A DNA stretch of 63,223 nt, counting the filler. It is 4 parts of 4 records of this genome, joined end to end, with 100 filler letters (N's around TTAATTAATTAA, not from the genome) between each part and the next. Parts side by side here need not be neighbours in the genome. Positions count along the whole stretch, not along the records: positions 51,756 to 63,223 come from SRR31147125_17334; 3 more parts are not named here. The stretch is one strand, 5' to 3'. Position 1 is the stretch's first letter. Every line of letters starts with the position of its first letter. The notes beneath the pieces were generated by a model that was not told the DNA's origin, ran no database searches, and saw only the letters and a list, made by a program, of their open reading frames with translations. Below, one piece after another: positions 7,357 to 63,223 of the stretch. The position numbers and the translations under genes were made by a program.

Positions 7357-7366
7357 AGGAGGATCT

Positions 7367-12522: not shown

Positions 12523-12622
12523 NNNNNNNNNNNNNNNNNNNNNNNNNNNNNNNNNNNNNNNNNNNNTTAATTAATTAANNNNNNNNNNNNNNNNNNNNNN
12601 NNNNNNNNNNNNNNNNNNNNNN
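12523..12622. other. Artificial contig linker
   Basis: N44-TTAATTAATTAA-N44 (stops in all six frames). Confidence 0.99.
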
Positions 12623-16794: not shown

Positions 16795-16798
16795 TAAA

Positions 16799-17722: not shown

Positions 17723-17759
17723 AATTTTCCTCCGTGTAAATGTTGTTTGAAATTCTTAC

Positions 17760-18602: not shown

Positions 18603-18606
18603 GGTC

Positions 18607-19530: not shown

Positions 19531-19548
19531 CGCACTAAAGTCTCCTTT

Positions 19549-20889: not shown

Positions 20890-20901
20890 TTCTTTTCTCC
20901 T

Positions 20902-22178
20902 TTAGTTGAATATTGTTGGTTTTTCTGCTGAGCCATTTGAGGTTGATAGTCCTTCAACTGATGGCCATCCATTATCATCCCAAATCAATTTATCAATTAA
21001 TAAACTTCTCCGATTTGAATTACCAACTTTATCTGGCTGTGATAAATCATATCCATGATAGACTAGCCAATAATCACCAGCATCATCTATGGCAATACTA
21101 TTGTGTCCAACGCCTGTAAACTGGCTACTAGGCATCACAACTTGATAGCCAACTTGGCTTTGTGTCATTGAATTTCCTGCATGATCCACATATGGACCTA
21201 GCGGACTAGTCGATCTTCCAACGACAACATTATATGTTGAGTTCACACCACTACAACATGATCCAGATGATAAAAACATATAATAATATCCATCTTTATA
21301 AATCACATATGCGCCTTCGTATGTATTAATATTAAACGGTAGACTTGTATCTTCACCAGCAAGTAATACTTTATCACTTGCAGCTTGTGCAATGTCACCT
21401 GCTAAACTTAATCCATCGCTGGCAAGTTCAATACCATAAATACCTCTAAAACTTCCCCAGACCATATATACTTTGCCATCCTGACCAGTAAATACAGCAG
21501 GATCAATAGAATTATTGACACCTATTTCACTTGATAAAAATAACTTGCCTTGATCTGTCCATGGTCCTGCTGGATGATCTGCCGTTGCAAAACCAATACC
21601 TGGATTTTCATCACCCCATAGAGATAATGAATAATATAAAATAAATGTATCATTAATTTTTACAATATCAGGGGCCCATAGACCAGCATTTAATGTTCCC
21701 CATGCCGGTCTATTCACACCTGTAAAAACGCTGCCTGTATATGTCCAATCTATCAAATTTGTTGATTGAATAATCGGACCATATTTTACACCAAACTCAT
21801 CATCCCATACACCATCATCTTGTGTACCATAAGCATAATATATGCCATCGTGACGAATAATGGAAGGATCAGCTAAAATAGGTTCCCAAACTGGATTATC
21901 ATATACTTGGCTTCCCCATACAGCTTTTAGAATAAATGCTTCATTAATCGGCGTGTCAAAATCAAAAGTTTCTCCATTATATTGCCACTCAACAAATACA
22001 TAACCATCTCTGATTGGAATTTCTGGAATGTCTAATATTTCATTTTCTTTGATGTTTTGTGATGCTACCGGTGAACCACCATTTGCATCAAATACCACTT
22101 TGTAAATTGTCTTTTGTCCACAAGCCATTAAAAGAAAGCTTGTGATGACGATTGTGACAACTAAATAAACTTTTTCAT
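20902..22178 (-). CDS. GH43 glycosidase lipoprotein with InlB B-repeat-like domain; 1-nt frameshift just after the start
   Basis: GGAGG RBS then ATG 22178; one extra A in the A5 run (22171-22175) gives MKKVYLVVTIVITSFLLMA-C; ADP, WAPD, SIDP, YEG motifs. Confidence 0.88.
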
Positions 22179-22192
22179 GAACTACCTCCGTT

Positions 22193-24661
22193 TTATGATG
22201 ATAAATCAGTGATGTCGCTGACAATAAAATAATCAATATCAACATTATGTGCATCAACACCTTCGCCTGCTGCACCTAACATAACAACTAATTTAGCGTT
22301 TGTTGTATCTATAGCATCAGTCACTTCAATCGTATATGTAATGACTGTCCAAGTATCAGCTTCTAATTGACTTTCTGTTCTTCCATCAGTTGCAATACCT
22401 GAGTATCCATTTGCTGCATCTTCAATCCATGCTCGAATTGTTCTTGCAACAGATGATTTAACACGTACATCTATTTGATATGTATGTCCTGCTTCTAATG
22501 TAATGCCTGAATTTTGATATAATTGATGATCCCAAGGATTACCACCAGGTGCTGCATCAAATGTCACTGTAACAACTCCATCAGTAATGCTTGCATCTAT
22601 GCGATCATATACCCATGAGCCTTGTTGATCAAAATTTTCTTCTTCAGCTTTAAATCTTGGACCAACAACTACAGTTCTTGTTTGCATATATACAGTACCA
22701 TTTGCATTTTCTGCAGCATATACAACTTCATAACTACCTGTTGTATAAATATCAAATCCATCATTATCATTAATGATTAAACTACTTGATATATCTTCTC
22801 CTAAACTATCTAATACAACAACATCTGTCAATAAATCAAATGTTGAATCACTATGTAAGACTGTCACACTTTCCATACCACTCCATACGAATGCATCATC
22901 GGCTGCTTCATTCACAGTCACAGTGATTGTTTTTTCTGCTTCATTGCCCGCTAAATCAATCGCTGAATAAGTAAGTGTGTATTCACCTGGTGTATTTAAG
23001 TCAACTAAGTTTTCTTTTACTGTAACATTTACTTCTTTTGAAATATCATCAGTTGCATATACATCTGCTAACCAATTAGGTTCTGCATCACCAGCTGTCA
23101 ACTCAAGATCTAGAGCACCTTCAATAGTTGGCACTTGATTATCTTCATAAAGATAGACTTGGAATGTATCAACTGTAACTGTTATATCATTTGCTGACGA
23201 TCCGTTTTTACCAAGTAACACCGCTACTTTTGCAGTTAAATCACTGTCTGCAGTAAATATGAGTTCAAACTCTTGATATTCAGTTGTAAGCAATGGATTG
23301 ATAGGATCTACAAGATTTCTAAATCCTGCACTCGGTTGATTGACTTCAATAGTCACTGTTCTTTCAGCTGAAGCTTTAATTCTAATAAATACACGATATG
23401 TTTGTCCAGCAGTTAATTCTGAAGATTCTTGTTGCAATTGAATATGCCATCCTGCTGTACTTTCGTTTGTTACTAAGATAGAAACAGTCCCATCACCATT
23501 ATCCGTGAAACTTGCTTCACCAGTCCCATCAGTTTGATTGACATCTGCAACCCAGCCTAACATACCACCATCGAAATCACCATTAACAGTGCTATGTGGT
23601 CCTTCTTTTGCAATATAATAATCAAATATTCTATTTTCTATCGATACATGACCATTTTCGTGTACGTATACATATTGAATGATTGCATTGGCACCAGCAT
23701 CTCTTACTTCTTTTGGAATTGCACCTAATATCATGAGATCATCAGTCACATCAGTTTCGCCTAATGTAGCTGAGACATCTTCAGTCAAATCAAGTGTATA
23801 AGACCCACTAGCTGCTGATACAACTTCATCAAGACCACTAAATGTAACACTTTGATCAATATTAACTTCTTCAATATAAATATCTTCTATGCTTACCATA
23901 TGAGGTTCTTCACTATTGACTACTAAGTCACCATCTTGTTGATAACCTAAATATATCACAACTTTAACATTACTATAATTTTTATCCGCTGTATAATACA
24001 ACTCATATGTCGAACCTTCTGCTGACAACGGCATACTTAGTGTACCCGGCATTAACATACTAAATCCATCATTTGGATCTTCAAAACCAACTGATAACGC
24101 ATGGCCTTGTGGACTTGATGCATTCACAGTCACTTTGTATGTCGTATTTTCTTTAAGAATAATATTACTTTGATATAACTGTAATGCCCACCATGCAGAG
24201 CCTGAATTTGAAATCGATACATTTGCTTTACCGTCTTCAAAACTTACATCAAAATCGCCACCTGGTTCATCGATTGTCCAGCCATAAGTATTATTCATCT
24301 CAAAATCATTGTTTGCAAGATTGTGCCCAATAGTGACTGAAAATGATTTTGTTTGTTCTTCAGTGACACCCGTTGAATTTTCAACTTGATATGTTACTGT
24401 ATAAACATCTGAAAAATGAGTGCTGAATCCACCGTCATCAGTGATTTCGATTTCACTTGTTAAATCACCATCAATGGAATCAGTAACCATCACACCTTCT
24501 AGTAAATCAACAACGTCCCCACGTACAATGGACTCATCTTCTAAACCTGACCAAGTTAACTCGCCATCATCAGATGGTTCAGGTTCTACAATTTCACTTC
24601 CGCAAGCTACTAATAGTGTAGCAAGTGCTAAAAACGCGAACATCATAAATATTTTTTTCAT
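22193..24661 (-). CDS. Surface lipoprotein with about three CBM4/9-like and about three DUF5011/Ig-like modules, no evident catalytic domain
   Basis: LVA-C lipobox; CBM-like WWALQLYQ, GWHIQLQQ, PWDHQLYQ; Ig-like DLLEGV..TDSIDGDLT and PGEYTLTYSAIDLAGN. Confidence 0.8.
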   Translation of the reverse strand: MKKIFMMFAFLALATLLVACGSEIVEPEPSDDGELTWSGLEDESIVRGDVVDLLEGVMVTDSIDGDLTSEIEITDDGGFSTHFSDVYTVTYQVENSTGVTEEQTKSFSVTIGHNLANNDFEMNNTYGWTIDEPGGDFDVSFEDGKANVSISNSGSAWWALQLYQSNIILKENTTYKVTVNASSPQGHALSVGFEDPNDGFSMLMPGTLSMPLSAEGSTYELYYTADKNYSNVKVVIYLGYQQDGDLVVNSEEPHMVSIEDIYIEEVNIDQSVTFSGLDEVVSAASGSYTLDLTEDVSATLGETDVTDDLMILGAIPKEVRDAGANAIIQYVYVHENGHVSIENRIFDYYIAKEGPHSTVNGDFDGGMLGWVADVNQTDGTGEASFTDNGDGTVSILVTNESTAGWHIQLQQESSELTAGQTYRVFIRIKASAERTVTIEVNQPSAGFRNLVDPINPLLTTEYQEFELIFTADSDLTAKVAVLLGKNGSSANDITVTVDTFQVYLYEDNQVPTIEGALDLELTAGDAEPNWLADVYATDDISKEVNVTVKENLVDLNTPGEYTLTYSAIDLAGNEAEKTITVTVNEAADDAFVWSGMESVTVLHSDSTFDLLTDVVVLDSLGEDISSSLIINDNDGFDIYTTGSYEVVYAAENANGTVYMQTRTVVVGPRFKAEEENFDQQGSWVYDRIDASITDGVVTVTFDAAPGGNPWDHQLYQNSGITLEAGHTYQIDVRVKSSVARTIRAWIEDAANGYSGIATDGRTESQLEADTWTVITYTIEVTDAIDTTNAKLVVMLGAAGEGVDAHNVDIDYFIVSDITDLSS

Positions 24662-24701
24662 TTATTTTTCTCCTTATATTTTACCCATGATTTGGGTTAT
24701 T

Positions 24702-24719
24702 TACTTTAACGTTAATGTA
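24702..24719. promoter_or_regulatory. Predicted LacI-family operator upstream of the glycan operon
   Basis: TACTTTAACGTTAATGTA, near-perfect palindrome with central CG; related copy at 25773. Confidence 0.7.
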
Positions 24720-24760
24720 TAATAATTTTACTAGGACTACTTTTAGTATATTGTGTAGTC

Positions 24761-25749
24761 CTATGTAGTTTTTCTGACCATCAATTTTGGTTCAAATATT
24801 TGAACTTTTAATGGTGTATCATATTGATATATTCTTGCCAATAAAAACTGTACTGCTTTTCTTGTGATTGCTTCATTCCCATTATGGATAGTTGTAAGTT
24901 GTGTTGGAATACTGAGTCTATGTTCAATGTCATCATAGCCAACAACTGCAATATCATGAGGGACATTTAGCCCGAGGTTTTCTATGGTTGTAATTGCTTC
25001 ATATGCCATGACATCATTAAAACAAAATATTGCTGTAACTTTATTTTGAACACATGATTTTACAAGATGAGCAATATCATCTTTGCGATGCTCTAAAAAT
25101 TTAATGTTTCCATCTTTCAACGCAACGCCATGATTTAAGCAACTTTTTTTAATCCTTCAAGCCTTTTTGTTGAACATTTGATATCACTTGGTGCACCAAT
25201 ATATGCAATATTCGTGTGGCCTTTATCAATAAGATGCTCTCCCACTAAATAACCACCTTTAACATCATTTGTAAACACTGAATCAATACCTAAGTCATCA
25301 CTTTCTCTACCAACAGTAACCATAGGGATTTGAATTTTTTTTGCATAATCAGCCACTTCTTTTGTTGGTTTTAAAAATGTGATGATACCATCAATTCTTC
25401 GTGATATCAACCGATTAAGTGCTTCCAAATCAAATTGTGCACGATCATTCGATCCTGTAAAAATCATAATGTCGAAGTTCTCTTCATTAAGAACCTTGTG
25501 AATGACCTCTGTCATAATCATGAAATATGGATTGGCTATATTGTCAAAAACAACACCTATCGTCTTTGTATATCCATTCCGTAAACTTTGCGCTACAAAA
25601 TCTGGGACATATCCCATATCTTTGGCTAATTGATTAATATATGCTTTTGTCGATTCTGATATGTCATCTTTGTCTTTTAATGCACGTGAGACTGTATTAA
25701 TAGACATACCAGCTTTTTTAGCAATATCCTTTAATAGTACTTTCGCCAT
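24761..25749 (-). CDS. LacI family transcriptional regulator, 1-nt frameshift at 25144-25150
   Basis: LKDIAKKAGMSINTVSRAL HTH; C-terminal AIFCFND and VVGYDD in another frame; one more A joins them (GLKKSCLNHG). Confidence 0.9.
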
Positions 25750-32125: not shown

Positions 32126-32225
32126 NNNNNNNNNNNNNNNNNNNNNNNNNNNNNNNNNNNNNNNNNNNNTTAATTAATTAANNNNNNNNNNNNNNNNNNN
32201 NNNNNNNNNNNNNNNNNNNNNNNNN
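32126..32225. other. Artificial contig linker
   Basis: N44-TTAATTAATTAA-N44. Confidence 0.99.
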
Positions 32226-51655: not shown

Positions 51656-51755
51656 NNNNNNNNNNNNNNNNNNNNNNNNNNNNNNNNNNNNNNNNNNNNT
51701 TAATTAATTAANNNNNNNNNNNNNNNNNNNNNNNNNNNNNNNNNNNNNNNNNNNN
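51656..51755. other. Artificial contig linker
   Basis: N44-TTAATTAATTAA-N44. Confidence 0.99.
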
Positions 51756-51872
51756 CCTGAAAAGATCCTAAATCCCGAGGGTGAAATCTTTGGTGTAACG
51801 CCTGTTGAACTTGAGGTGTTGCCTGGGAAGATTGAGATATTTTATTGCCTGTCAGCCGGAGCCTCGGCGTAG
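51756..51872 (+). CDS. C-terminal fragment of a diacylglycerol/lipid kinase family protein
   Basis: PEKILNPEGEIFGVTPVELEVLPGKIEIF resembles the DGE..G.TP...V.P tail of YegS/DAGK proteins. Confidence 0.55.
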   Translation, partial: PEKILNPEGEIFGVTPVELEVLPGKIEIFYCLSAGASA

Positions 51873-51960
51873 GTTGATGAGACGGAATGACAAAATCTGA
51901 CTGGATAACAGGATGTCATAGATAATATTTAGACAGGATAACACGATAGATAAAGATACA

Positions 51961-52125
51961 ATATTGGACTGCTACGCAGTCCTTTTGTTTTTGAGATAAT
52001 TCTTACCAAATTGGACTACGACGTAGTCTGATAAAAAGCGATCAAGTCTACTATATTGGACTCTAAGGAGTCCAATATAGTAGATAATATCATTTGATAA
52101 ATCAACTCTGTAGGAGTTGAATATT
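51961..52125. repeat. Cluster of four related REP-like hairpins
   Basis: GGACTGCTACGCAGTCC, GACTACGACGTAGTC, CTACTATATTGGACTCTAAGGAGTCCAATATAGTAG, TCAACTCTGTAGGAGTTGA. Confidence 0.75.
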
Positions 52126-52132
52126 ATATTGT

Positions 52133-54556
52133 TCAATGAGACAGTTTGATAATAATATCGATCATATTCGAATCAATTTCGCCCACATCCAATCTATTTC
52201 CCTCTAGCTCTACCCCATTTACGATCATGGATTTTACACCTGAATTCAAATGATCGGGATTTTGGATTGTGATATTCAGTGTTTTTCCCCGGAACTTACG
52301 TTTAATGCTGAAGCCTTCCCATTTTGATGGGATCTTAGGATCAATGATAAGACCTTTGTAATCGGCACGTATTCCGAGTAAATAAGACATGCCAATATAA
52401 TGCATCCAAACAGCAGAACCTGTCAACCATGAGTGAGACGCCTGCCCCATCGTTTCATGATCTGGAGACGTGACGTATTCACTATAAACGTAAGGTTCTG
52501 TTTCGTAACGGTCTATTCCGGCTTCTTCAGATGAATTTAATGGCATCATTTTGGAATAAAGCCTATTGGCATCTTCAATATTATCGTTCATTAAGGCTGC
52601 CATGATATACCAGGATGATGCGTGATTAAATATAGCACCATTCTCTTTTTTACCCGGAACGCAACGTGAAATCAAACCAACTGTATCATCTATTTCTGTA
52701 TATGATGGCCAGCAGATCTGCATACCAAGGGGTGTTTCGAGGTATTTTTTGCAGGCTTCAAGCGATCTTTGCGATCTTTCCTCATCTGCAACACCTGAAA
52801 TAACCGACCAGGTCTGTGCGTTCAGGAATAATTTGCCTTGTTCATCTTTGGCTGAGCCCACTGGAATACCATTATCACGATATGCACGTAAGTACCAGTC
52901 ACCATCCCAAGCTATGCTATTGATCGTATGCTTTAATTTTTGATATTCTTGTCTGAGTTCTTGTGCTTGATCATATTCTTTAACGAATTCAAGTAAATCA
53001 GCGGTTTCTTTAAGTGTATATGCCAGAAAAAATGCACCCCAAACCGTTTCTCCTTTTCCATCTGAACCGATATGATCCAGAGTGTCGTTCCAGTCGCCGT
53101 TCATGATCTTGGGCAAACCGTGTTCACCTGTCTCGGATAAAGCATATTTTATTGCCATAACGCAGTGATCAAGAACTCTTGCTTCACTTTCATCGTAGAA
53201 AGTTACCACTTCATCAAGAATGCCGGTATCGCCTGTTTCTTTGATATAGGACGAAACACCCAAGGGAATCCATAACGGTGTATCGGAATGGTGGGTCCTT
53301 TCTCCTGTTTTGACCAATTTAAAGTAGTTGTGAAGCGTGGAACCGTTCTTAAATTGGTATTGCATGGCGTTTAAGAGACGATCCCTGACTCGCCGGGGAT
53401 CAGACAGCAAAACACCGAAGATATCCTGAAATTGATCTCTCATCCCGGTTCCGAACAATAAACCGCCGTGATAAAATCCGGCATTTCGTGCCATATCAAA
53501 AGTAACGTGCGTTTGATAATAATTCCATGTTCCCAGCATGGTGTTCAAAGCTTCATCGGGTGTTTTGATCTCAATGTTTGAATAAATATCATCCCATTTG
53601 GCTTTAAGTGCGGCAAATTCCTTTGCAGCATAGCAGCTTTTTCGAATATCTTTGATATTCTTTCCGCCAATAATATCAAATTCATTACCGCTTTCTTTAT
53701 CAGAAAGCATCATCATGGTTGAAAAGGACTTAGATTCATACGCTTTTAGGGTTAATTCGGATTGCAGAGCTGCACAAGGTTCTCCGGCAGTGATCTCGGT
53801 ATTGTCCATTTTGCTGTTCTCGATGGCTTGCGGATCCGCTTCTGAACGCCATTTACCAATAAAGTGGTCTAAGGACGCATCAAAACCTTTTACCGGAAGG
53901 GTTGTCGTAAATAATACATGGTACTGCCAGTCGATATTCGGTTGTTTTACGCTGACACCTTTGTTTAGAACCCAATATCTGCGTGTTGCAACCAGGCTCT
54001 GATTTTCTTTATTAAAGTGAATATCGGTAAAATGTTTGTCATTCGGTTGATTGATCAAATCGTTCAGAGCATTTCCCATGAGCAATTCGGTGTAAGAGTA
54101 GACTTCCAATTTTCTCTCTTTGCCAGTAAGGTCTTTGATTTCCACATGCCATATCTCACCGGCATCCTTCAGCGGAACGAAATAGGTCAAAACAGCTTGA
54201 ATGCCCTTATATTCTGTTGTGATCTTTGAATATCCGCTGCCATGACGACATTCATACTTGTCATATTCAATATTAAGGGTGGGCGCCCAGGAAAGTGACC
54301 AGAACTCACCGGATTCAATATCTTTCAAATAGATGTAACGTCCGGGACGATCCCAAGGCAAGGAATTATAGCGCATGCGTGTAATGCGATTATCACGCGC
54401 AGATTGGTAATAGGAGAAGCCACCACCGGTATGAGATAAAAGTCCGGCGTAATTCTCATTCCAGATATAATTAAACCAGGGACGAGGCGTTCTTGGGTCA
54501 GTGATCACATATTCGCGCGCTTTATTGTCTACATAAGCATATTTATTCTTTAGCAT
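52133..54556 (-). CDS. GH94 glycoside phosphorylase, substrate unknown
   Basis: TPRPWFNY, DRPGRYIYLKD, YECRHG, GMRDQFQD, GDWND (catalytic Asp), GKKENGAIFNH, SWLTGSA. Confidence 0.92.
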   Translation of the reverse strand: MLKNKYAYVDNKAREYVITDPRTPRPWFNYIWNENYAGLLSHTGGGFSYYQSARDNRITRMRYNSLPWDRPGRYIYLKDIESGEFWSLSWAPTLNIEYDKYECRHGSGYSKITTEYKGIQAVLTYFVPLKDAGEIWHVEIKDLTGKERKLEVYSYTELLMGNALNDLINQPNDKHFTDIHFNKENQSLVATRRYWVLNKGVSVKQPNIDWQYHVLFTTTLPVKGFDASLDHFIGKWRSEADPQAIENSKMDNTEITAGEPCAALQSELTLKAYESKSFSTMMMLSDKESGNEFDIIGGKNIKDIRKSCYAAKEFAALKAKWDDIYSNIEIKTPDEALNTMLGTWNYYQTHVTFDMARNAGFYHGGLLFGTGMRDQFQDIFGVLLSDPRRVRDRLLNAMQYQFKNGSTLHNYFKLVKTGERTHHSDTPLWIPLGVSSYIKETGDTGILDEVVTFYDESEARVLDHCVMAIKYALSETGEHGLPKIMNGDWNDTLDHIGSDGKGETVWGAFFLAYTLKETADLLEFVKEYDQAQELRQEYQKLKHTINSIAWDGDWYLRAYRDNGIPVGSAKDEQGKLFLNAQTWSVISGVADEERSQRSLEACKKYLETPLGMQICWPSYTEIDDTVGLISRCVPGKKENGAIFNHASSWYIMAALMNDNIEDANRLYSKMMPLNSSEEAGIDRYETEPYVYSEYVTSPDHETMGQASHSWLTGSAVWMHYIGMSYLLGIRADYKGLIIDPKIPSKWEGFSIKRKFRGKTLNITIQNPDHLNSGVKSMIVNGVELEGNRLDVGEIDSNMIDIIIKLSH

Positions 54557-54563
54557 TCTTTCC

Positions 54564-57314
54564 TCAAATACTCAATTTTAATGTTTTGATCTTTTTAGGT
54601 GTCATTTCGATCTTATTCAGGTTTATATCCCCTATAAGCAGCTCTTCCATAGAGGTTTCCACGGCTTCTTTGATCTTGAATACACTCTTCAATTCTGTGA
54701 TCTGCATCACAGATGTCGGATTATACAGGCGCAAGACGTACGCGTTCTTTTCGCGATCTTGCGATTCTTTAATGCAGGATATGACAATTTGATCATTGCT
54801 TAATTCAAAGAATGATCTTCCGGACTTGATCTCCCCGCTTGTATTACCATGTTCCACAATGCGAAGCGATGTATTGTAGTTTAAGGCTGTTTCATAGAGT
54901 TTATCGACTTCTTCCATATTAAAAGGATAGAATGCAAAGCGTGCTTTTTGTTTTCCCATGCATTGCGAACCCTTTTGTTCACTATAATCTTGCTTTGAAC
55001 TGGGTTGAATAATGTAGCGAAAAGCCCTGAAAAGCGTGATAGCCAGCGTACTTTTATCCGGCAATACTTCGTATTCCTTTAAACCGTCCAGAAGCAATGC
55101 ACAAGCTTTTGTATCATCGTTTATGCTCATGAAATGATAAACCGGTTGATCATATTGGGGCTGTTCGACCCAGTCTGACGTGTCAGGACGGTCTGTAGAT
55201 CTCTCCACCACATCAAATTGTCCTTGTGCTTTTGAAGTTTCAGAAATGACATCCGTATCAAAGATCATTCTTAAACGATGATCTTCTGATGGATTATCAA
55301 TAAGTGATTCATATTCAATATATTGTGACGTCTTTCTCAGCGTGATGATCGTCTCGATCTTCATGTTTTTTGAAGCGATTCCTTGTTTTCTTTCCTCAAG
55401 GTTTTTCGCAATGGGAAGTCGATGGATCAACTTGATCTGTTGCATTAAGTCATTGTTAACAAGGACGTGAACAAAAGACGGAAGATCTTTAGGGGTAAAT
55501 ACCGGTTCCACTTTTTCGTGCGTCCAGGCATGACCGGATTCACCTTCATCTTCATAATAGCCGGTATTCTCTATCTTACGTCCGGAAGCTTTATGCAGAA
55601 TATTCAAAGTGCCGTCCATGTTCACATTGACTGAAAGATGTTCGTTTTCCAGTTTTGCGCCCTGCACAATAGCTTTTTGTTTAATTTCGGGAGTTCCTTC
55701 GACCGGATTTACCTTAAATGTGTTCAGACTAAGTCCCGGAAGTTTCTCAACAGCCATCAAAACATGGTAGCGTTTCATTCTAAAGTACATGGGACGGTCG
55801 ATCAGCTGCTCAAGTACCGGTTCTTCATCTTTGATCGACAGAATTTCCATCGAAATGGTGTTCCCATCCTTATCAAAGATCTCAACATTGCCTTTATCCA
55901 GGTTTTGTGGTATATCAGTATGTGCTTCAATGATCTCTGAACGTTCATATTGGGTCGTATTGATCACAGTTAAATGAATATCTTCAGGATTTTTCCCCGG
56001 ACAATTTATATTCTTTATAAGATACTTTGTCGCTTTCGAAAAAACGCTTTCAGCGATCTCGTTGATCTGTTTGTATCGATTGACCATATCTTCATGAATG
56101 GCATCCAGGGAACAACCGCCAATGGAATCATGTGCGGCATTTTCGATGAGCATGCGCCAGGCGATCCTCAAACTTTGATCGGAGATATCAAGTCCAAACA
56201 TACCCGCTATGGTATACAGAGGTTCGGCATATCTTTCCAACCATCTCTCAGCATCCGCGTTCATTTGTTTCAAATACATGCGTGCCGAAGTGATATAACC
56301 GTATAAATTACCGCTACGGTGGTCGTATTGCGCCGATCTGCGTTCGCCCGTGACTTTGCTCAGTTTCGTGCGATCGACGTCCTGAGCAAGGAATTTGGCG
56401 TAGTCTTCTAAAGTTGAATGACGAACATCCACATCCGGCATTAAGCGCTTGATATCTTTGATAATTCTTGTTGTTTTTGCATTTGGGCCACTGCTATCAT
56501 GACCTTCCATCCAAATAACGTGAGGCGAAGTAAAATCATCCACTTGTTCGTCGATCAGTTTACTCGTCCATTCTTTGACATTCTCTTCGTAGTAAGTATC
56601 ATTGGCATCGGCTAAGGAATAATCTTCATTAAACTGTTTTTTATCGGCCAGATGAATAGGCGATCCTCCCCTTTTCCAGTCATATTCTACGTCATGTGGT
56701 GTTTCATTGAAAATAAGCGGCCGATACAGAAAGAAATAGAAGTTATAGCGTGGCATTGTTGAAAATCGCGATGCAAGGGCTTCTGTTCCATCAGCTCCGG
56801 TCCAAAGGAATTCAGCCTTTTTACTATCCAGTGAATTCATTCCTCTGTAGAACATGATCAGATCGATATCGAATCCTTTGTACAATTGCGGCAATTGTGA
56901 GATCTGACCCCAGGAAAAAGGCGAATAACCGATCTTAGATACTTTCCCGAATTCTTTACAGGTTTCGTGACCTAAAAGCAGATTGCGAATAAGATTTTCA
57001 CCCGAGATCATAAATTCGTCCGGAAGAATATACCAGGGACCGATGAATAGACGGTCTTCTTTGACGTATTTTTCAATTATCGTTTTCTTTTCAGGTCTGA
57101 TTTCAAGGTAATCACGCAGGACAATGGATTGAGAATCCAGGTGAAAGGCCCTGTAATCGGGATCATTCTCAAGAATTTCCAGAACAGAATCGATCATTTC
57201 GACCAGATGTTGGCGATTTTTCTGGAATGGGAAACGCCATTCGCGATCCCAGTGTGTGTTGGAAATAACGTGAAATACTTTATCTTTATATTCTTTGGGC
57301 ATATATTTTCTCAC
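54564..57314 (-). CDS. GH38 alpha-mannosidase-fold protein, atypical (nucleophile Asp replaced by Phe)
   Basis: SNTHWDREW, FHLDSQ, IGPWYILPDEF, ENLIRNLLLG, AHDSIGGC, DHRLR; GYSPFSWGQ in place of GYxPDxFG. Confidence 0.9.
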   Translation of the reverse strand: MRKYMPKEYKDKVFHVISNTHWDREWRFPFQKNRQHLVEMIDSVLEILENDPDYRAFHLDSQSIVLRDYLEIRPEKKTIIEKYVKEDRLFIGPWYILPDEFMISGENLIRNLLLGHETCKEFGKVSKIGYSPFSWGQISQLPQLYKGFDIDLIMFYRGMNSLDSKKAEFLWTGADGTEALASRFSTMPRYNFYFFLYRPLIFNETPHDVEYDWKRGGSPIHLADKKQFNEDYSLADANDTYYEENVKEWTSKLIDEQVDDFTSPHVIWMEGHDSSGPNAKTTRIIKDIKRLMPDVDVRHSTLEDYAKFLAQDVDRTKLSKVTGERRSAQYDHRSGNLYGYITSARMYLKQMNADAERWLERYAEPLYTIAGMFGLDISDQSLRIAWRMLIENAAHDSIGGCSLDAIHEDMVNRYKQINEIAESVFSKATKYLIKNINCPGKNPEDIHLTVINTTQYERSEIIEAHTDIPQNLDKGNVEIFDKDGNTISMEILSIKDEEPVLEQLIDRPMYFRMKRYHVLMAVEKLPGLSLNTFKVNPVEGTPEIKQKAIVQGAKLENEHLSVNVNMDGTLNILHKASGRKIENTGYYEDEGESGHAWTHEKVEPVFTPKDLPSFVHVLVNNDLMQQIKLIHRLPIAKNLEERKQGIASKNMKIETIITLRKTSQYIEYESLIDNPSEDHRLRMIFDTDVISETSKAQGQFDVVERSTDRPDTSDWVEQPQYDQPVYHFMSINDDTKACALLLDGLKEYEVLPDKSTLAITLFRAFRYIIQPSSKQDYSEQKGSQCMGKQKARFAFYPFNMEEVDKLYETALNYNTSLRIVEHGNTSGEIKSGRSFFELSNDQIVISCIKESQDREKNAYVLRLYNPTSVMQITELKSVFKIKEAVETSMEELLIGDINLNKIEMTPKKIKTLKLSI

Positions 57315-58609
57315 TTCTTCATGAATAGATGATGTTTTAACAGGACTTCCGGCAATCCGCCCTGCACGATATGTGATGCTGCAGACAGATCATGACCTGA
57401 TGTCTCTGCAAATGGTAAGGCGATGGCACAAGGAATTCCCGCTGCTCTAATGGCAATGGTTCCGCTTTCGCTGTCTTCAAATCCCATGACTTTATCCATA
57501 TCGTTAAGATCAATATGCAAAGTGTTCAAAGCAATGCTATACAAATCACGATGTGGTTTAAGTCTGATCTCGTGTGAATCATTGGCTGTTACAAAAGCGT
57601 CGTAAACGCGATGGTAATCGGAAAAAGCCCAATCCAATTCCCGTTTTTTAGTTGCTTTTAGCGGCCAGGCGCTGATCTCTTTCTTTATAGCTTCGAATAC
57701 CTGTTTGATCACAATATCCGCCTCATAAAAGATAGATGATGTAACCAAAGCCAATTTCACGGGATCTTGTTTAAAATATTCAGCTAAAGCATTAAGATCG
57801 GTATCATTATCAAATTCCAATCCGGTTTTTATCAAGTAATCTTCCATCAATATTGGTGTAAGGTACTTAAGGTCATCAGCCGACAACCAGCCTTTGATAA
57901 GTGAGATAAATATTGCAACACCGGGCATGGGTTCGATCAGGTTATCCATGCTCATGTCGTGGATCAATTCATTCATGGGAATTGTTTCATTCTTATCTAT
58001 TGCCATCAGAATTTCGTGGTATCGCTGGTAATATATGTCGATGGAAGCTCTGACGATCTTGCTTTTTGAATCTATCAGACAAGATTTTTTGTATTTTCGA
58101 AACAATTCTTTATTTGAAAGCTCAACATCGTTCTCAATGCCTTCACAATTCAATATTTTACAGGAAATCTTAACTTCTTTCACTCTTGAAGGATCTTTCC
58201 CAAAACGAAAAAACCAGGCTGCCGATTCAATAAATGCTTTTCTAATAGCTTTTTCATCAATATTAAATCGATAGGTATCAATAAGGTATTCGACATGTCT
58301 TGTTGTGCTGTTGCCGATGATATGCGGATAATCTTTTTCTTCATCCAATCCGGGCCAAGCAGAAAGATCCATGCGATCCGATATTTTACGTATCATAAAT
58401 TCTAAAGAATGAATGCAAAGATTTTCAGTTGTGGTTGTGGTACCGTCCATATCGCAAACAATGGTTTGAATATCTTTCAGTTCTTTCTTTTTCTTTGCTA
58501 AAGGAGCGTATTCATAACGTGGGAATACACCTTCGGGGTTTTTAATACAGGCAAATTCCCCTTTGGGCAGTTTATCAATGGTTGTTTTATGTGAAACGAT
58601 CTTCTTCAT
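57311..58609 (-). CDS. HAD family phosphatase/mutase with a large inserted cap
   Basis: DMDGT, LVTSS, LKPHRDLY, GFEDSESG; 432 aa. Confidence 0.85.
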   Translation of the reverse strand: MKKIVSHKTTIDKLPKGEFACIKNPEGVFPRYEYAPLAKKKKELKDIQTIVCDMDGTTTTTENLCIHSLEFMIRKISDRMDLSAWPGLDEEKDYPHIIGNSTTRHVEYLIDTYRFNIDEKAIRKAFIESAAWFFRFGKDPSRVKEVKISCKILNCEGIENDVELSNKELFRKYKKSCLIDSKSKIVRASIDIYYQRYHEILMAIDKNETIPMNELIHDMSMDNLIEPMPGVAIFISLIKGWLSADDLKYLTPILMEDYLIKTGLEFDNDTDLNALAEYFKQDPVKLALVTSSIFYEADIVIKQVFEAIKKEISAWPLKATKKRELDWAFSDYHRVYDAFVTANDSHEIRLKPHRDLYSIALNTLHIDLNDMDKVMGFEDSESGTIAIRAAGIPCAIALPFAETSGHDLSAASHIVQGGLPEVLLKHHLFMKK

Positions 58610-58610
58610 G

Positions 58611-60044
58611 TTACTCCGATATCAATGTAATGCCTTTTTCAAGAAAAAGTGCAACTTCTTCCTCGCTTTGCCCTTCAGCATAAATTCGCATCAGGGGTTC
58701 GGTTTCAGATGCTCTCAGCAATAACCATCTGCAGGAACCTTCCAGACGGAATTTCAGTCCGTTAACAATACCGCGTGAACTGTTAAAAGCTTCGATATCC
58801 AGGATTTTCAATCCTGCAAATGTCGTTAATTTCTTATCATAAAGCGTCGGAAGGATCGATATCCTGTCCGGTCGGTCGAATTTATGGTCTATGCGATCAT
58901 AATAAATCTTTCCAAATTGTTTTCTTTTTGCTTCAACAAATTTGGATAGCTTTTTATAACCTGATTTTGCCAACATTTCAAGAAAAAGCAATGCGGAAAA
59001 TATTCCATCTCTTTCCGGCATATGAAAACTGTAGCCGAAACCGCCGCTTTCCTCGCAACCGATGGCTGCCCATGTCTTTAACATCTGTTCACAAATGTAC
59101 TTGAATCCGACTTGAACTTCATATAAAGGATGTTCTTCGGAAGCAAGTTGACTTATTTTATCGGTAACCGAGGATGTTTTAACAATACATCCTTCTTCCT
59201 TCCTGACATTGATCACATAATCTGTCAAATATAGAATGGTTTCCTGTGCGCTTAGCCATTCACCGTTTTCCATCATCACGCCAAGTCTGTCCGCATCCCC
59301 ATCGGTAGCAAACCCGCAACAATATTCGTTGCTTGCTTTCAGTGCCGCAGCGAGCGGTTTTAAATTCTTTTCAATCGGCTCGGCATAACGTCCGGAAAAA
59401 TCTTGAGTTGCATCACCATAGATAGTTTTACATGGGATGTCATATTGGAAAAGATATTCATCAATAAAAGTCTGTCCTGCACCTCCCATTGAATCTATTA
59501 AAGGCATAATTTCGGCATAATAAATAGCATTAAAATCAATGTGACTGTGAATAATTCTATGATATTCATCCAACTCATCAATTATCATACCAATACATCC
59601 ATGAAAAAATGTATCAGTAAGTAATGATTCAACTTTTCTGGTCTCCTCGGTCATAAAGGGACCACCATAATTAGCTTTGAATTTAACACCATTATATTGA
59701 GGTGGATTATGTGAGGCCGTAATCATGACCCCGGCAGTATAATTAAACCAACGTGTTAGATAAGATATCATTGGAGTGGCGACGATACCATCTTGTACAA
59801 AAGAGTCAATTCTTAACCCCTTCAATACAAGATTAAAGGTATTGGCAAGTTCTTTAGATCCTTTTCGTCCATCATATCCAATAATACAACTTGCTTTTTC
59901 TTTTTTATTCTTTAAATAACGACCAAAAGCTGATGCAACCAAAGCAACACTTTGACTATTTACTTCTTTTTCAATTAATCCTCTCCAACCATCTGTACCA
60001 AAGATGATCTTTGGAGGGTTCTTTACTGTAATTATCGGATTCAT
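58611..60044 (-). CDS. Alpha-D-phosphohexomutase (PGM/PMM family)
   Basis: FGTDGWRG, TASHNP (phospho-Ser), DGDADR, VGFKY, EESGG, RASETEP. Confidence 0.95.
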   Translation of the reverse strand: MNPIITVKNPPKIIFGTDGWRGLIEKEVNSQSVALVASAFGRYLKNKKEKASCIIGYDGRKGSKELANTFNLVLKGLRIDSFVQDGIVATPMISYLTRWFNYTAGVMITASHNPPQYNGVKFKANYGGPFMTEETRKVESLLTDTFFHGCIGMIIDELDEYHRIIHSHIDFNAIYYAEIMPLIDSMGGAGQTFIDEYLFQYDIPCKTIYGDATQDFSGRYAEPIEKNLKPLAAALKASNEYCCGFATDGDADRLGVMMENGEWLSAQETILYLTDYVINVRKEEGCIVKTSSVTDKISQLASEEHPLYEVQVGFKYICEQMLKTWAAIGCEESGGFGYSFHMPERDGIFSALLFLEMLAKSGYKKLSKFVEAKRKQFGKIYYDRIDHKFDRPDRISILPTLYDKKLTTFAGLKILDIEAFNSSRGIVNGLKFRLEGSCRWLLLRASETEPLMRIYAEGQSEEEVALFLEKGITLISE

Positions 60045-61288
60045 ACTTCCCTGATCGTGATCTTTTTGTTTATCGCTTTAGCGGCAATTCTACCGGCTGC
60101 TTCACCTGTTGCAGCGCATGTGGGCATAATGCGCAGAGCTGCTTGTCCCTCTCTGGTAGATGAAATACATCTACCGGCCGCTTGTAGATTTGAGACACCT
60201 TTTACGAATAAAGCCCATTTAGGTATATCGTAATATTCGCCTTCCGGCAGTTCTTCCATGATATTCTCATCTTCTTTTTGACCGTGGATATCGATCCCGT
60301 AGCATGCTTTTGCGATCGCGAAATCAAACTTACGGCCTTCCCTGATATCAGAAGTCGACATTACATAATCACCGACAGCTCTACGGGTTTCACGGACTCC
60401 TACCCTGTCCGCAACTTGTGCCAATTCCGCCTGTTCAAATCCGGGAAGTTCTTTCAGTATTTTGACAATATCAGCGATCTGTGTTCGCCCTTCAAGATAA
60501 GCATCTTCAAGGTTTTTTGCTGAAGTTCCATCGTATCCCAGCAGATTTGTGCAATTGAATGAAGCTGTTCCCAGCTCAGGTAAAGTGCAGTAAAAAATGT
60601 ATTGAACAGAATTTGAAAGCCTTTTTTCTTTTCTAGCCATCAAAATATGAGAAAAATAACCCGCCACGGATGAAATATGTTTTGGATCGTAAGCTTTTGT
60701 TGACCATGGAAAGAAATCTTCAGGATTTTCCTGTACGTAAGCTATTGCTTTTTCAAGATCAATATTTTTCATTTTGAAAAAAAGCGTCATAGCTTGTTGA
60801 TCCTGGGATATTTCAAAAGGTGCATCCGCTAACCAGGTTAAAACCGCATCACCGCTTGTATCGATGAATTGTTCTGCTTTTACTTTGATCGTTGCATCAT
60901 CTGAGCTCAGGATCAATTCTTTTATACGTGTAACATCTCTTTCAACTTCTATCAAGGATGTATTGAGTAATAATTCTACGCTACTCTTTTGTAGCATCTC
61001 CATAGCAACTTCCCTGAAAACAGCGGCCGAAAAACCGTTATCCAGCATACCGCCCTTTTCCCTCATTTCATCTTGAAGTTCTTTGAAAACACCTTCAACA
61101 AGTGCCTTACCGTCAATTTCATGTTTCATGAATGGTGAAACAAGTCCACCCGTGGCCATTCCGCCAATATATGAAAAAGATTCGACCAAAAGGACCTTAG
61201 CACCAGTCCGGGCTGCAGAAACGGCAGCGCAGATACCGGCGATGCCGGCTCCAACGATAGCAATATCCGTTTTGATCGTTCTTGACAT
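60041..61288 (-). CDS. FAD-dependent oxidoreductase (FAD_oxidored-like family, function unknown)
   Basis: VGAGIAG, GGMATGGLV, IDTSGDA, GVRETRR, YDIP, AGRCIS, ALRIMPTC..TGEAAG. Confidence 0.88.
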   Translation of the reverse strand: MSRTIKTDIAIVGAGIAGICAAVSAARTGAKVLLVESFSYIGGMATGGLVSPFMKHEIDGKALVEGVFKELQDEMREKGGMLDNGFSAAVFREVAMEMLQKSSVELLLNTSLIEVERDVTRIKELILSSDDATIKVKAEQFIDTSGDAVLTWLADAPFEISQDQQAMTLFFKMKNIDLEKAIAYVQENPEDFFPWSTKAYDPKHISSVAGYFSHILMARKEKRLSNSVQYIFYCTLPELGTASFNCTNLLGYDGTSAKNLEDAYLEGRTQIADIVKILKELPGFEQAELAQVADRVGVRETRRAVGDYVMSTSDIREGRKFDFAIAKACYGIDIHGQKEDENIMEELPEGEYYDIPKWALFVKGVSNLQAAGRCISSTREGQAALRIMPTCAATGEAAGRIAAKAINKKITIREV

Positions 61289-61289
61289 C

Positions 61290-61979
61290 TTAATCTTTCA
61301 TCTTTTCTACATATTTCATGGTCATGATCCTCGGACGTGTGATCACAGTACCGACGACCACCGCATAAGCGCCTGCGTTAAGTGCCGCTTTGGCATCCTC
61401 CGGAGAGGATATACGTCCCTCAGCAATGATGGGAATATCCACTTTTTCAGATAATTCTTTTATCAATTTTAGATTCGGTTTTCCATCCTTATCAGCTTCG
61501 GTTTCGGCTGTATACCCGTTCAAAGTTGATGACAAGCAATCCGCACCTGCTTCAGCACAAGCAAGTGCATCTTTCAAGCAGGAAATATCGGCCATGATGG
61601 GTTTTTGATATGTTTCTTTCATCTTTGCAATGAATTCCGGACCGGTCAAGCCATCCCAGAATCGCAGTGTCCCATCAATGGCCACCATATCGCAGCCAAT
61701 TTTATAGAGTTTTTCAACATCTTCCGGTGAACGTGTGATCTTTACGTATCCATCATTAAATTCAGCTTTTGTGATCCCGATCACAGGAAGTGCAATATTC
61801 TGAATTATATGATCTGTTTTTCTTATCCCACAGGAACGAATCGCTGCTGCACCGCCCATTTCAGCCGCTCGTGCGAACAGGGTTACACCATCCGGTGTAT
61901 TGAATGGATCGTTATCTTCCGCTTGACAGGAGACGATCAAGCCCTTTTTAAGTTTGGCAAATAGTTCTTTTGCGGACAT
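61290..61979 (-). CDS. nanE: N-acetylmannosamine-6-phosphate 2-epimerase
   Basis: GLIVSCQA, GGAAAIR, PVIGITK (catalytic Lys), IMADIS, TLNGYT, IAEGRI, VVVGTVITRP. Confidence 0.93.
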   Translation of the reverse strand: MSAKELFAKLKKGLIVSCQAEDNDPFNTPDGVTLFARAAEMGGAAAIRSCGIRKTDHIIQNIALPVIGITKAEFNDGYVKITRSPEDVEKLYKIGCDMVAIDGTLRFWDGLTGPEFIAKMKETYQKPIMADISCLKDALACAEAGADCLSSTLNGYTAETEADKDGKPNLKLIKELSEKVDIPIIAEGRISSPEDAKAALNAGAYAVVVGTVITRPRIMTMKYVEKMKD

Positions 61980-63221
61980 CTATGTTCTCCAGAAGAGTTT
62001 TTTTCGTGTAAAAAAGCTAACGATCAATGCCAAAATCAGCGTTTGAGCGCAAGCTAAAGCAAGTCCCCACCAATTACTGGAAGCAGAGATCTCTTTCAAC
62101 CATGGGAAAATGTGGGTTAAATATAGAATGGGAATGACAAGGTTATACATCCCCACATATGCGATCATGGGGTTTTGGCCATTGCTGATCAAAAGACCGA
62201 ATAGTTGTTTCTTTTTCAGAATATCGATCCAGATGCTGAAGAATACCAGCATGTAATAGGCTAAACCGCTTGTCAGAAAATAATATGAAAGCGTTGAGTT
62301 ATCTTTCTTGATACCGCCGCCAAAGGGCTCAAAAATCAATCCGAGTATGATCCACAAAGAACCCCAAACAACAAGATTCTTAAGAAGTTTTTCATCCTGA
62401 TTCATAGGTTTACGAACCTGTAGCCATGCAACAAAACATAGAATGAGCATTACAATGGTCGTTGCATTTAAAACTCGGGTGTACAATCCTACCAGGGATA
62501 CGGCAACCATCGCCAATGCGTAGATAGATAATACAACTAACCTTGGTGTATCGGGTTCATTGGCATCCTCTCTTCTGGTTTCCATCCAGTTCTTGATAGC
62601 ATCTCCAGCCATGGTTCCGGGAAGAACAATGAGCAAGTACTTTAACCATGAGAAGTTATAAAGCCATGTCAAAGGTGAAAAATTCCAAATTTTATCGATC
62701 CAGGAATAATCCACACCATTGAATAAGTGTTGAACATAAGGAATATATTTTATCGATTCCTGTCCACCGATGGCCGTTGCAATATCAAGTTGCATATGCA
62801 CAAGCCGCATTCCGATAAAAACCGCCATTACGGCCAGCCTGGCCATAGGATTCTTTCGAGTAAGTAAATAGATGATCGATCCAAAGAACATCATATTTGC
62901 TAAAAGCATAATGATAATATCCATTCTTTGGAACTTGAATCCCGAATCATCAGGATATTTCATGAATATCAAAAAGCTCAAAGCACCTGCCCAACCCAGG
63001 ACTTTCAATAAAACTTTCAACCATCCAGGCCAATTCTTCGGTGCCCTCAGGTAGATCATAAATAAGATGGCAAAACCGGCTAGGCCAAGTGCCCATGCAC
63101 CGTAAGCTATTTCGGGGCCCCAGATATTGTCTGTAAGCCTGTAGGGACGTATGTGTTGGATAAAGATCGCAAAGAAGACCAACAGGACTGTCCTTTCAAG
63201 AATATGCCCTGAAAGCGCCCA
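61980..63221 (-). CDS. DUF5009 / HGSNAT(NagX)-like membrane acyltransferase, 5' end runs off the window
   Basis: Polytopic; DIIIMLLAN, LKYLLIVLPGTMAG, EPFGGGIKKD..TLSYYF.TSG, NGQNPMIAY; frame open to the window edge. Confidence 0.8.
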   Translation of the reverse strand, partial: WALSGHILERTVLLVFFAIFIQHIRPYRLTDNIWGPEIAYGAWALGLAGFAILFMIYLRAPKNWPGWLKVLLKVLGWAGALSFLIFMKYPDDSGFKFQRMDIIIMLLANMMFFGSIIYLLTRKNPMARLAVMAVFIGMRLVHMQLDIATAIGGQESIKYIPYVQHLFNGVDYSWIDKIWNFSPLTWLYNFSWLKYLLIVLPGTMAGDAIKNWMETRREDANEPDTPRLVVLSIYALAMVAVSLVGLYTRVLNATTIVMLILCFVAWLQVRKPMNQDEKLLKNLVVWGSLWIILGLIFEPFGGGIKKDNSTLSYYFLTSGLAYYMLVFFSIWIDILKKKQLFGLLISNGQNPMIAYVGMYNLVIPILYLTHIFPWLKEISASSNWWGLALACAQTLILALIVSFFTRKKLFWRT

Positions 63222-63223
63222 AA

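Follow-up and report, generated by a model that had tools for sequence, protein, structure and literature searches.

The 63,223-nucleotide stretch of DNA analysed here (the window) ends in a run of seven minus-strand genes, which Pfam and NCBIfam assign to DUF5009, NanE, PF12831 (FAD_oxidored), PGM/PMM, a weakly matching HAD, GH38 and GH94, with the places and families given in a preliminary description of the sequence. They close, at its 3' end, a glycan-utilisation locus that is conserved in Marinisomatota and Ignavibacteria, and we hold with high confidence that this locus is real, conserved, directed at N-acetylmannosamine (ManNAc) and independent of sialic acid. Gene content, linkage, residue changes and folds were observed directly: the GH38 protein has lost its catalytic nucleophile and has the HAD enzyme as its fixed partner. 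On balance, the former is probably a phosphorylase and the latter its beta-phosphomutase, as judged from conserved residues and predicted folds.

The GH38 protein and its HAD neighbour

All four Pfam GH38 domains are present, and the predicted structure (mean predicted local distance difference test score, pLDDT, 87.9) matches 5KBP and 2WYI in Foldseek with template modelling (TM) scores of 0.82–0.84, the five-domain mannosidase architecture being complete (TM 0.84). The closest named family is MngB, NCBIfam PRK09819, at 467.7 bits against a cut-off of 1138. In SpGH38 the zinc ligands are H13, D15, D125 and H351, D125 doubles as nucleophile and D232 is the acid/base, while R149 and Y192 contact D125, the latter by a hydrogen bond (accessible text of PMC2815779). 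This nucleophile Asp, also a zinc ligand, is missing here: Phe133 stands in its place, in 121/121 close homologues and in 54/54 proteins of the relatives' alignment. The general acid D273 and the three other zinc ligands H21, D23 and H395 are kept and, with R157 and Y190, are invariant in the same 121 homologues; the residue two before the zinc His is mostly Asn, not His. The preliminary description was thus right to call this GH38 atypical, but its proposal of a hydrolase cleaving alpha-ManNAc links is not supported, the nucleophile being missing.

A wider scan of metagenome GH38 loci (the best 80 of 580, 27–70% identity, from two search patterns of which one favours proteins without the Asp) found 48/80 to lack the nucleophile (Phe 38, Thr 8, Asn 2) and 32/80 to retain it. 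The non-Asp proteins form one clade (Shimodaira–Hasegawa-like approximate likelihood ratio test support 100, in a quick tree of 72 rows that left out 10 short loci), which also reaches into Planctomycetota and Bacillota. Position 134 is Ser or Gly in all 48. Arg183 occurs in 41/46 non-Asp rows covering the site versus 1/32 Asp rows, and Arg189 in 45/46 versus 0/32; in the model, R183 lies at the end of a barrel strand and R189 ahead of a helix. Asp273 is present in 43/43 non-Asp rows that cover it, and the sugar contacts W26, D396 and R157 are invariant across a clade spanning ~30% identity. No new conserved carboxylate was seen in the clade, E270 being found in only 10/43 rows.

In sequence, one catalytic acid is kept, and in place of the second carboxylate the clade has Arg and Ser residues beside a retained Tyr. 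Between GH65 hydrolases and phosphorylases the acid is likewise kept and the second carboxylate becomes Lys/Arg, Ser and His, alongside a Tyr that binds either (PMC11442529). At the sequence level the change in GH38 is the swap described for that family, and we propose that R157, R183, R189 and Y190, together with the S131–S134 loop, may form a phosphate-holding site. Proteins of the clade are currently annotated as alpha-mannosidase or mannosylglycerate hydrolase. Searches of the open-licence literature brought up neither a GH38 lacking its nucleophile nor a phosphorylase from this family, and a term search of a 2022 phosphorylase review (PMC8950772) returned no occurrence of 'GH38'.

The second line of evidence is the HAD enzyme, whose family the preliminary description named, correctly if on a weak match (below the Pfam cut-off), and to which it gave no role. 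The motifs DxD, T/S, K and ED are invariant in 53/53 relatives, the fold is that of a C1-capped HAD, and comparison with the beta-phosphoglucomutase (beta-PGM) of L. lactis gives Z 17–18. It is the fixed partner of the nucleophile-less GH38, lying directly upstream of it in 52/52 genome loci with enough flank. In the metagenome loci a HAD profile finds relatives beside 18/48 non-Asp and 0/32 Asp GH38 genes (Fisher p 2e-5, a value that overstates independence because the non-Asp clade has one origin), and where both flanks are at least 1.5 kb the counts are 13/22 and 0/14. These neighbours are spread over five sub-clades, and occur also in Planctomycetota, Oscillospiraceae and Robinsoniella peoriensis. 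Three genomes (G043, G380 and G414) have neither GH38 nor HAD, yet keep GH94 and nanE. The R. peoriensis locus (L215), the best cultured test case, contains an ABC transporter, the nucleophile-less GH38, HAD, two GH141-like beta-helix proteins and manA, and shows no kinase within ~10 kb. Elsewhere a GH65 gene abuts one non-Asp member, and GH92 or GH130 lies beside others. Plasmid searches with both HAD forms gave no match.

Besides the single origin of the clade, several points weigh against a phosphorylase–mutase pair. Phe133 is bulky, and residues 134–136 are modelled with pLDDT below 50. The HAD model resembles phosphatases (CbbY, ranking first, Z 19.8) no less than it does beta-PGM (Z 18.0). 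Against the beta-PGM family model TIGR01990 the protein reaches 17.2 bits where the cut-off is 189.4, which lowers the claim that it is a beta-PGM, not the claim that it works like one; it could be a plain phosphatase. A fold search meant to tell mutase from phosphatase achieved no separation. The neighbourhood is also incomplete: 30/48 non-Asp GH38 loci show no HAD neighbour, some of them (L180, L182, L196, L206 and L226) with 10 kb on both sides, and kinases adjoin some members (NagK-like in L199, PfkB in L226). Conversely, G378 carries a HAD without GH38; this lone gene (L151:9301-12113) directly precedes a UDP-GlcNAc 2-epimerase gene and a GT2 gene.

As a rival explanation, GH38 may still be a hydrolase, acting through zinc-activated water with inversion or by P–O cleavage of a glycosyl-1-phosphodiester, a reading that we consider unlikely and that survives best among the alternatives. 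The new arginines would then hold the substrate's own phosphate, as in the 6-phospho-mannoside of MngB, and the HAD would be a phosphatase trimming terminal phosphates. The 468-bit match to MngB as closest named family is in keeping with it, as are the phosphatases that lead both the structural and the sequence matches of the HAD, and the NAGPA phosphodiesterases of the locus, one of which lies directly upstream of GH38 in L180 and L182, where no HAD is seen. Yet an inverting hydrolase normally needs a base, and none is conserved in the clade; the arginines flank the very Tyr that touched the nucleophile rather than a distant subsite; canonical MngB-type GH38 loci carry this HAD in 0/32 cases; and manA beside GH38 and HAD in L215 fits a 6-phosphate product.

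A version of the reading in the preliminary description would make GH38 a substrate-assisted alpha-N-acetylmannosaminidase in which the acetamido group replaces the nucleophile and Phe133 cradles its methyl, with GH94 and the alpha-mutase feeding NanE after DUF5009 has re-acetylated the substrate. Participation is chemically feasible for an acetamido group that is axial and stands trans to the alpha leaving group; Phe133 is invariant in this sub-clade, nanE belongs to the operon, and in G025 (L092) HAD and nanE stand alone as a pair. We rate it as quite improbable, however, as position 133 is Thr or Asn in 10/48 clade members, no extra conserved carboxylate is available to polarise an oxazoline, members outside the phylum have as neighbours not nanE but manA, GH92, GH130 and a weak match to GH99, and the HAD and the arginines are left unexplained. 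Re-acetylation as a core step fares no better, since DUF5009 is present in only 3/56 operons with long upstream sequence.

Lower again we place a protein that no longer cleaves glycosides at all, i.e. a zinc de-N-acetylase or amidase, or a non-catalytic sugar-phosphate-binding protein. Loss of one of the zinc ligands leaves three and a free site, and the barrel is related to GH57 and also to the CE4 deacetylases; against this stand the invariance of D273, W26, D396 and R157 over a clade of ~30% identity and the retention of the whole mannosidase architecture.

Conservation of the locus and the source of its ManNAc

Genome-level statements here are drawn from relatives' genomes rather than from the window's own. 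The best 80 of 137 matches to the GH94 protein define loci L001–L080; among these, the closest relatives (80–83% identity) include a Neomarinimicrobiota metagenome-assembled genome (MAG), and most of the others (50–63%) are labelled Ignavibacteria or Bacteroidota. L014 (titled Synechococcus) and L011 (Acidobacteriota) have the Ignavibacteria gene order at ~60% identity, and their labels may be wrong. The operon's gene order is found again in most of the 80 loci and is therefore not due to chance. Where at least 9 kb lie upstream of GH94 (n=56), GH38 is present in 49, HAD in 49, the alpha-mutase in 46, a hydantoinase-like ATPase in 37, nanE in 36 and the PF12831 flavoprotein in 31. Beyond the cut end of the window, the closest relatives G001 and G003 continue upstream with this ATPase and a transporter without Pfam match, then a 1500-residue type IX secretion system (T9SS) protein, a NAGPA-type protein and a NagC-like ROK repressor, and furthest upstream T9SS-tailed GHL10 enzymes, outer-membrane barrels, PorV and a TonB receptor. 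No description of a locus of this kind was found in the open-licence literature.

Two side observations concern these loci. A PF02522 aminoglycoside 3-N-acetyltransferase-like gene lies near GH94 in 13 of L001–L080 (e.g. L029:12418-13227), and often so does an aldose 1-epimerase. In G390 (L146 and L159; C25) internal stops interrupt the ATPase, GH94 and GH38 genes, one in each, whereas nanE and HAD, both intact, are scattered; this may reflect a decaying locus or assembly errors.

NanE passes its NCBIfam cut-off (231 versus 189 bits) and aligns end to end with solved NanE, retaining Lys62, which we take to be catalytic. Searches for nanE and nanA covered 50 of the 80 relatives' genomes, chosen for long flanks, and true nanE was found in 50/50. 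An even sample was also drawn from the phylum to which G005 belongs: of its 401 genomes, five of which are also part of the 50, 14 carry the GH94 clade, taken at 54% identity or above; nanE is present in 14/14 of these versus 12/387 others and the ATPase in 14/14 versus 7/387, counts that are not independent since the genomes are related. The linkage to nanE expected by the preliminary description is thus conserved.

As that description also noted, no nanA, nanK or sialidase is found in the visible part of the operon's contig, and its caveat that nanA or nanK might lie just upstream does not apply to the three closest relatives, the 20 kb upstream in G001 and G003 holding only the ROK repressor. 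Although MAGs are incomplete, nanA reaches its cut-off in 0/50 genomes. Weaker matches to the nanA model occur at 25 places in 20/50 genomes; of the 24 inspected, four sit in dapB-dapA-dapD operons, 11 exceed the dapA cut-off, another 8 fall short of it but still have dapA as their best model, and one, in G033, is ambiguous, being best as NanA at 153 of 281 bits. A gene of the dihydrodipicolinate synthase (DHDPS) family is missing from the three closest relatives and two single-contig genomes alike (5/5). A sialic acid origin of nanE was accordingly rejected, and ManNAc catabolism independent of sialic acid is well supported.

That nanE nevertheless derives from sialic acid catabolism, with glycosidases for common gluco/manno substrates such as cellobiose or N-glycans, might draw on the unseen 5' end of the contig, the incomplete MAGs, BNR-repeat proteins (BNR_2 in 0/3 closest genomes and 2/5 tested overall) and a sister GH94 clade that sits with GH130, GH125 and GH3, but we think it very improbable given the missing DHDPS-family genes, the 0/25 nanA-model matches over cut-off with 23/24 inspected ones dapA or best as dapA, and the AGE ManNAc epimerase in the locus of G291, a genome without nanE match.

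Which sugar the GH38 enzyme would release is a separate matter. Phosphomannose isomerase was tried as a discriminator between mannose and ManNAc and proved uninformative: all five genomes tested carry some type of it, which leaves mannose a candidate. The GH38–HAD neighbours outside this phylum point to mannose, and within it nanE is in the operon. We lean slightly towards mannose, ManNAc being a plausible second choice. A third nanE context (L153, L155, L160, L168, L169 and L097) combines a TonB receptor, DUF5074, the transporter, a PGI-like protein and a GH38 of the canonical MngB type, sometimes with two PF12831 flavoproteins.

GH94, the ATPase module and the layout of the contig

The GH94 protein has the expected Pfam domains and keeps the acid D491, the phosphate-binding H645 and R357/R373/D374, i.e. 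the catalytic Asp, phosphate His and R/RD motif of the chitobiose phosphorylase (ChbP) VpChBP, cellobiose phosphorylase (CBP) and acholetin phosphorylase; it very probably works by phosphorolysis. Its +1 site (R631, C632) is like that of chitobiose phosphorylase, matching the ChbP positions R630/V631/K636/E637, and has C632 instead of the CBP-type Tyr, whose change to Val in CBP widens acceptance towards GlcNAc and mannose (accessible part of PMC7896129). The donor side probably differs, and identity to solved GH94s is below 40%. An Arg of CBP/ChbP (CgCBP R362, VpChBP R343), which contacts the -1/+1 sugars according to the accessible text of PMC5309861, is replaced by L367-F368, and E693 stands where CBP/ChbP-type enzymes have Gln. 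Cellodextrin phosphorylase uses one Arg and one Gln to bind its donor at the equatorial O2 (PMC5667895). The sister GH94 clade keeps both the Arg and the Gln. We assume, from residue spacing rather than an alignment, that these O2-binding residues correspond to the two changed positions.

An unchanged site for a GlcNAc acceptor and a changed donor site would fit ManNAc-beta-1,4-GlcNAc. Against a manno donor, Man-1-P inhibits a cellodextrin phosphorylase (PMC5667895), and no characterised GH94 is reported to use one in the accessible text of PMC9052796, whose 18 screened GH94s could include this clade. GlcNAc and ManNAc are equally credible donors, each at somewhat below even chance, and a ManNAc-beta-1,4-GlcNAc phosphorylase is a tentative assignment, a shade weaker than that. 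The sister clade (L162–L165, 38–41% identity to the window's GH94) adjoins GH130, with GH125 and GH3-like genes in three loci, and has the appearance of a locus for N-glycan cores that may include a new phosphorylase of the chitobiose type. The alpha-phosphohexomutase has its phosphoserine, metal and sugar loops, reaches the cut-off of no named sub-family, and stays with GH94 where the locus splits (L060, L136); it is possible that these two feed NanE.

The preliminary description called the route kinase-free, which does not hold, because the hydantoinase-like ATPase is linked to nanE (at most two genes away in 36/36 loci) and ROK kinases are encoded elsewhere in 5/5 genomes tested. This 716-residue protein has ATP-binding Hydantoinase_A domains, as in 5-oxoprolinase, N-methylhydantoinase A and the acetone carboxylase beta subunit; the match extends only to about residue 340, the C-terminal part being its own, and here it is paired with the transporter, the flavoprotein and nanE. 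No hydantoinase B subunit was recognised among the recurring neighbours, of which only part are annotated. At split loci the ATPase remains beside the transporter and nanE. Plasmids of Selenomonas, Halostagnicola and Haladaptatus (L125, L126, L127) carry the transporter, the ATPase and the PF12831 flavoprotein together in the absence of nanE, so that the three constitute a separate module, common to bacteria and haloarchaea, which in L126 has an AGE epimerase nearby. The idea that the ATPase is a ManNAc kinase was weakened on three counts: 3/21 genomes with the ATPase have no nanE match, the locus of one of these three includes an AGE epimerase that would serve free ManNAc, and those sister loci that do contain nanE have their own ROK kinase. 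Our guess is that the module acts on a substituted acidic ManNAc, e.g. the 4,6-pyruvate ketal, which occurs in secondary wall polymers (PMC6030368, as accessible); that it strips this ketal is conceivable, if rather unlikely. No pyruvate-ketal-removing enzyme is given in the accessible parts of PMC6801904, PMC10881899, PMC12827396, bioRxiv 2021.06.02.446819 and 2026.04.20.719765, nor is a hydantoinase mentioned in those of the xanthan papers. For the flavoprotein no solved relative was found beyond the FAD-binding motif, and for DUF5009 Pfam gives that family only, with a weak N-terminal match to an HGSNAT_cat protein (pairwise E 6e-4).

Seven sister loci share the transporter–ATPase module (the transporter frame is uncalled in one) and use DUF4855, in six of the seven beside a GH38 that keeps the nucleophile Asp. 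The four with nanE (L137:2991-5075, L138, L144, L145) encode DUF4855 as a fusion with a ROK kinase, while DUF4855 is unfused in L140, L142 and L143; one sister locus without nanE has an AGE epimerase. Neither this HAD nor this GH94 clade has a match in their genomes, nor does this GH38 in the five of them that were tested. The comparison sets hydrolase and kinase there against a proposed phosphorylase and mutase here. Separately, the restriction of the fusion to loci with nanE is a lead that DUF4855 releases ManNAc; the open-licence literature mentions this domain once.

The window consists of four contigs joined by N44-TTAATTAATTAA-N44 linkers at 12523-12622, 32126-32225 and 51656-51755. The contigs are unrelated (G+C content 38.6, 32.7, 33.2 and 40.7%), and the operon occupies the last (51756-63223, 40.7%); because of the joins, sequence left of 51656 was rejected as context for it. 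Open reading frame calling gives gaps between neighbours of 0, 1, -4, 1, -4 and 7 nt, as the preliminary description had them, with one reservation: in close homologues the GH38 protein begins four codons further in (912 residues). Met5 at 57302 may thus be the real start, which would turn the 4-nt overlap into an 8-nt gap. DUF5009, at the window end, is ~85 residues short relative to its relatives.

Features of the operon and its contig (window coordinates)
Feature	Position	Strand	Basis or remark
Artificial contig join (N44-TTAATTAATTAA-N44)	51656..51755	.	left limit of the operon's contig
GH94 inverting beta-glycoside phosphorylase, uncharacterised clade	52133..54556	-	Pfam domains, catalytic residues
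GH38-fold enzyme without catalytic nucleophile; proposed phosphorylase	54564..57314	-	Pfam, alignment, fold
Asp273 codon, retained general acid (SpGH38 D232)	56496..56498	-	alignment
R183 to R189-Y190, clade-specific arginines; proposed phosphate site	56745..56768	-	beside the Tyr equivalent to SpGH38 Y192
Phe133 codon, at SpGH38 D125 (nucleophile) position	56916..56918	-	ungapped alignment
HAD-IA enzyme, enlarged cap; proposed beta-phosphomutase	57311..58609	-	motifs DxDGT, TSS, KP, EDS
Alpha-D-phosphohexomutase	58611..60044	-	motifs TASHNP, DGDADR, GCEESGG
PF12831 flavoprotein, accessory	60041..61288	-	Pfam
NanE, ManNAc-6-phosphate 2-epimerase	61290..61979	-	NCBIfam cut-off, alignment
DUF5009 membrane protein, putative acyltransferase, accessory; 5' part cut	61980..63221	-	Pfam

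On the 3' side of GH94 (51899-52131) there are three 25-nt repeats with spacings of 47 and 45 nt, the last of which forms a perfect 17-bp hairpin (52047-52084), possibly a terminator or an element like the repetitive extragenic palindromes. The apparent 3' end of a plus-strand gene, convergent with the operon, lies at 51756-51870 and may resemble lipid kinases. Judged by eye from translations, contig 2 carries glycosidases, an ABC sugar transporter and a LacI regulator (15556-25749), and contig 1 a decarboxylase with an antiporter (5951-8767).

Proposed pathway and its nearest relatives

Taken together, the locus would serve to scavenge ManNAc-containing envelope glycans of other bacteria, the seven genes forming its cytoplasmic end; every activity and substrate named here is a prediction. 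To judge by the relatives, secreted GHL10 and NAGPA enzymes would cut the polymer and the TonB receptor would import the pieces, which two phosphorylase–mutase pairs may then dismantle. In the first pair, GH38 would use zinc-bound inorganic phosphate to cleave an alpha-mannosyl or alpha-ManNAc bond with inversion, yielding a beta-1-phosphate whose phosphate the HAD would shift to O6. In the second, GH94 would cleave a beta-linked N-acetylhexosamine disaccharide to an alpha-1-phosphate, from which the alpha-mutase would likewise move the phosphate to O6. NanE would convert ManNAc-6-phosphate to GlcNAc-6-phosphate. A substituted ManNAc monomer might be handled at ATP cost by the upstream transporter and ATPase, often with PF12831 flavoproteins, and free sugars would need an unlinked ROK kinase. 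We give the whole two-pair scheme an even chance; that the GH38–HAD pair, a ManNAc-beta-1,4-GlcNAc phosphorylase and pyruvate ketal removal should all hold jointly is very doubtful.

Each part has a recognisable counterpart. With SpGH38 (2WYI), the E. faecalis protein 5KBP and E. coli MngB the GH38 enzyme shares its fold, the zinc His-Asp-His, the acid, W26, R157 and Y190, and differs in having Phe, Thr or Asn for the nucleophile Asp, two new Arg and a fixed HAD partner. GH65 phosphorylases are paired with beta-phosphoglucomutase in the use of maltose, kojibiose and trehalose, and the proposed parallel lies in the alpha-glycoside, the single acid and the delivery of a beta-1-phosphate to a HAD enzyme; the GH38 differs in fold, metal dependence, origin from a retaining family and manno rather than gluco configuration. 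With the nan cluster (nanA, nanK, nanE, nanT) the locus has in common NanE and, more widely, a ROK-family repressor, whereas nanA and sialidase are not linked and nanK is not part of this locus type. Closest in overall plan are the polysaccharide utilisation loci of Bacteroidota, e.g. xanthan loci (GH38, GH94, flavoprotein), with their TonB receptor, secreted hydrolases, cytoplasmic GH38/GH94 and regulator; what sets this locus apart is the ManNAc glycan target, T9SS-tagged GHL10 and NAGPA proteins, nucleophile-less GH38, two mutases and hydantoinase-like ATPase. We propose to regard the system as a variant of the glycan utilisation locus, in which the activity proposed for GH38 and HAD would represent a new class of enzyme.

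There are few glycoside phosphorylases, which are prized as tools for synthesis, and none in GH38, or acting on alpha-mannosides via a beta-1-phosphate, was found in the open-licence literature. The odds seem to us evenly divided on whether the GH38 clade without nucleophile represents a novel class of inverting, zinc-dependent phosphorylases that turn alpha-manno glycosides into beta-Man(NAc)-1-phosphate, with the linked HAD family as their dedicated beta-phosphomannomutase; the two would then make up a pathway like that of GH65 and beta-PGM, derived from a retaining mannosidase and now distributed across several phyla. If so, the synthesis of alpha-mannosides or alpha-ManNAc glycosides would become possible, and the clade would exemplify a retaining metallo-glycosidase turned inverting phosphorylase. 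The locus itself offers a testable gene set for the microbial breakdown of ManNAc wall polymers and of substituents such as pyruvate ketals.

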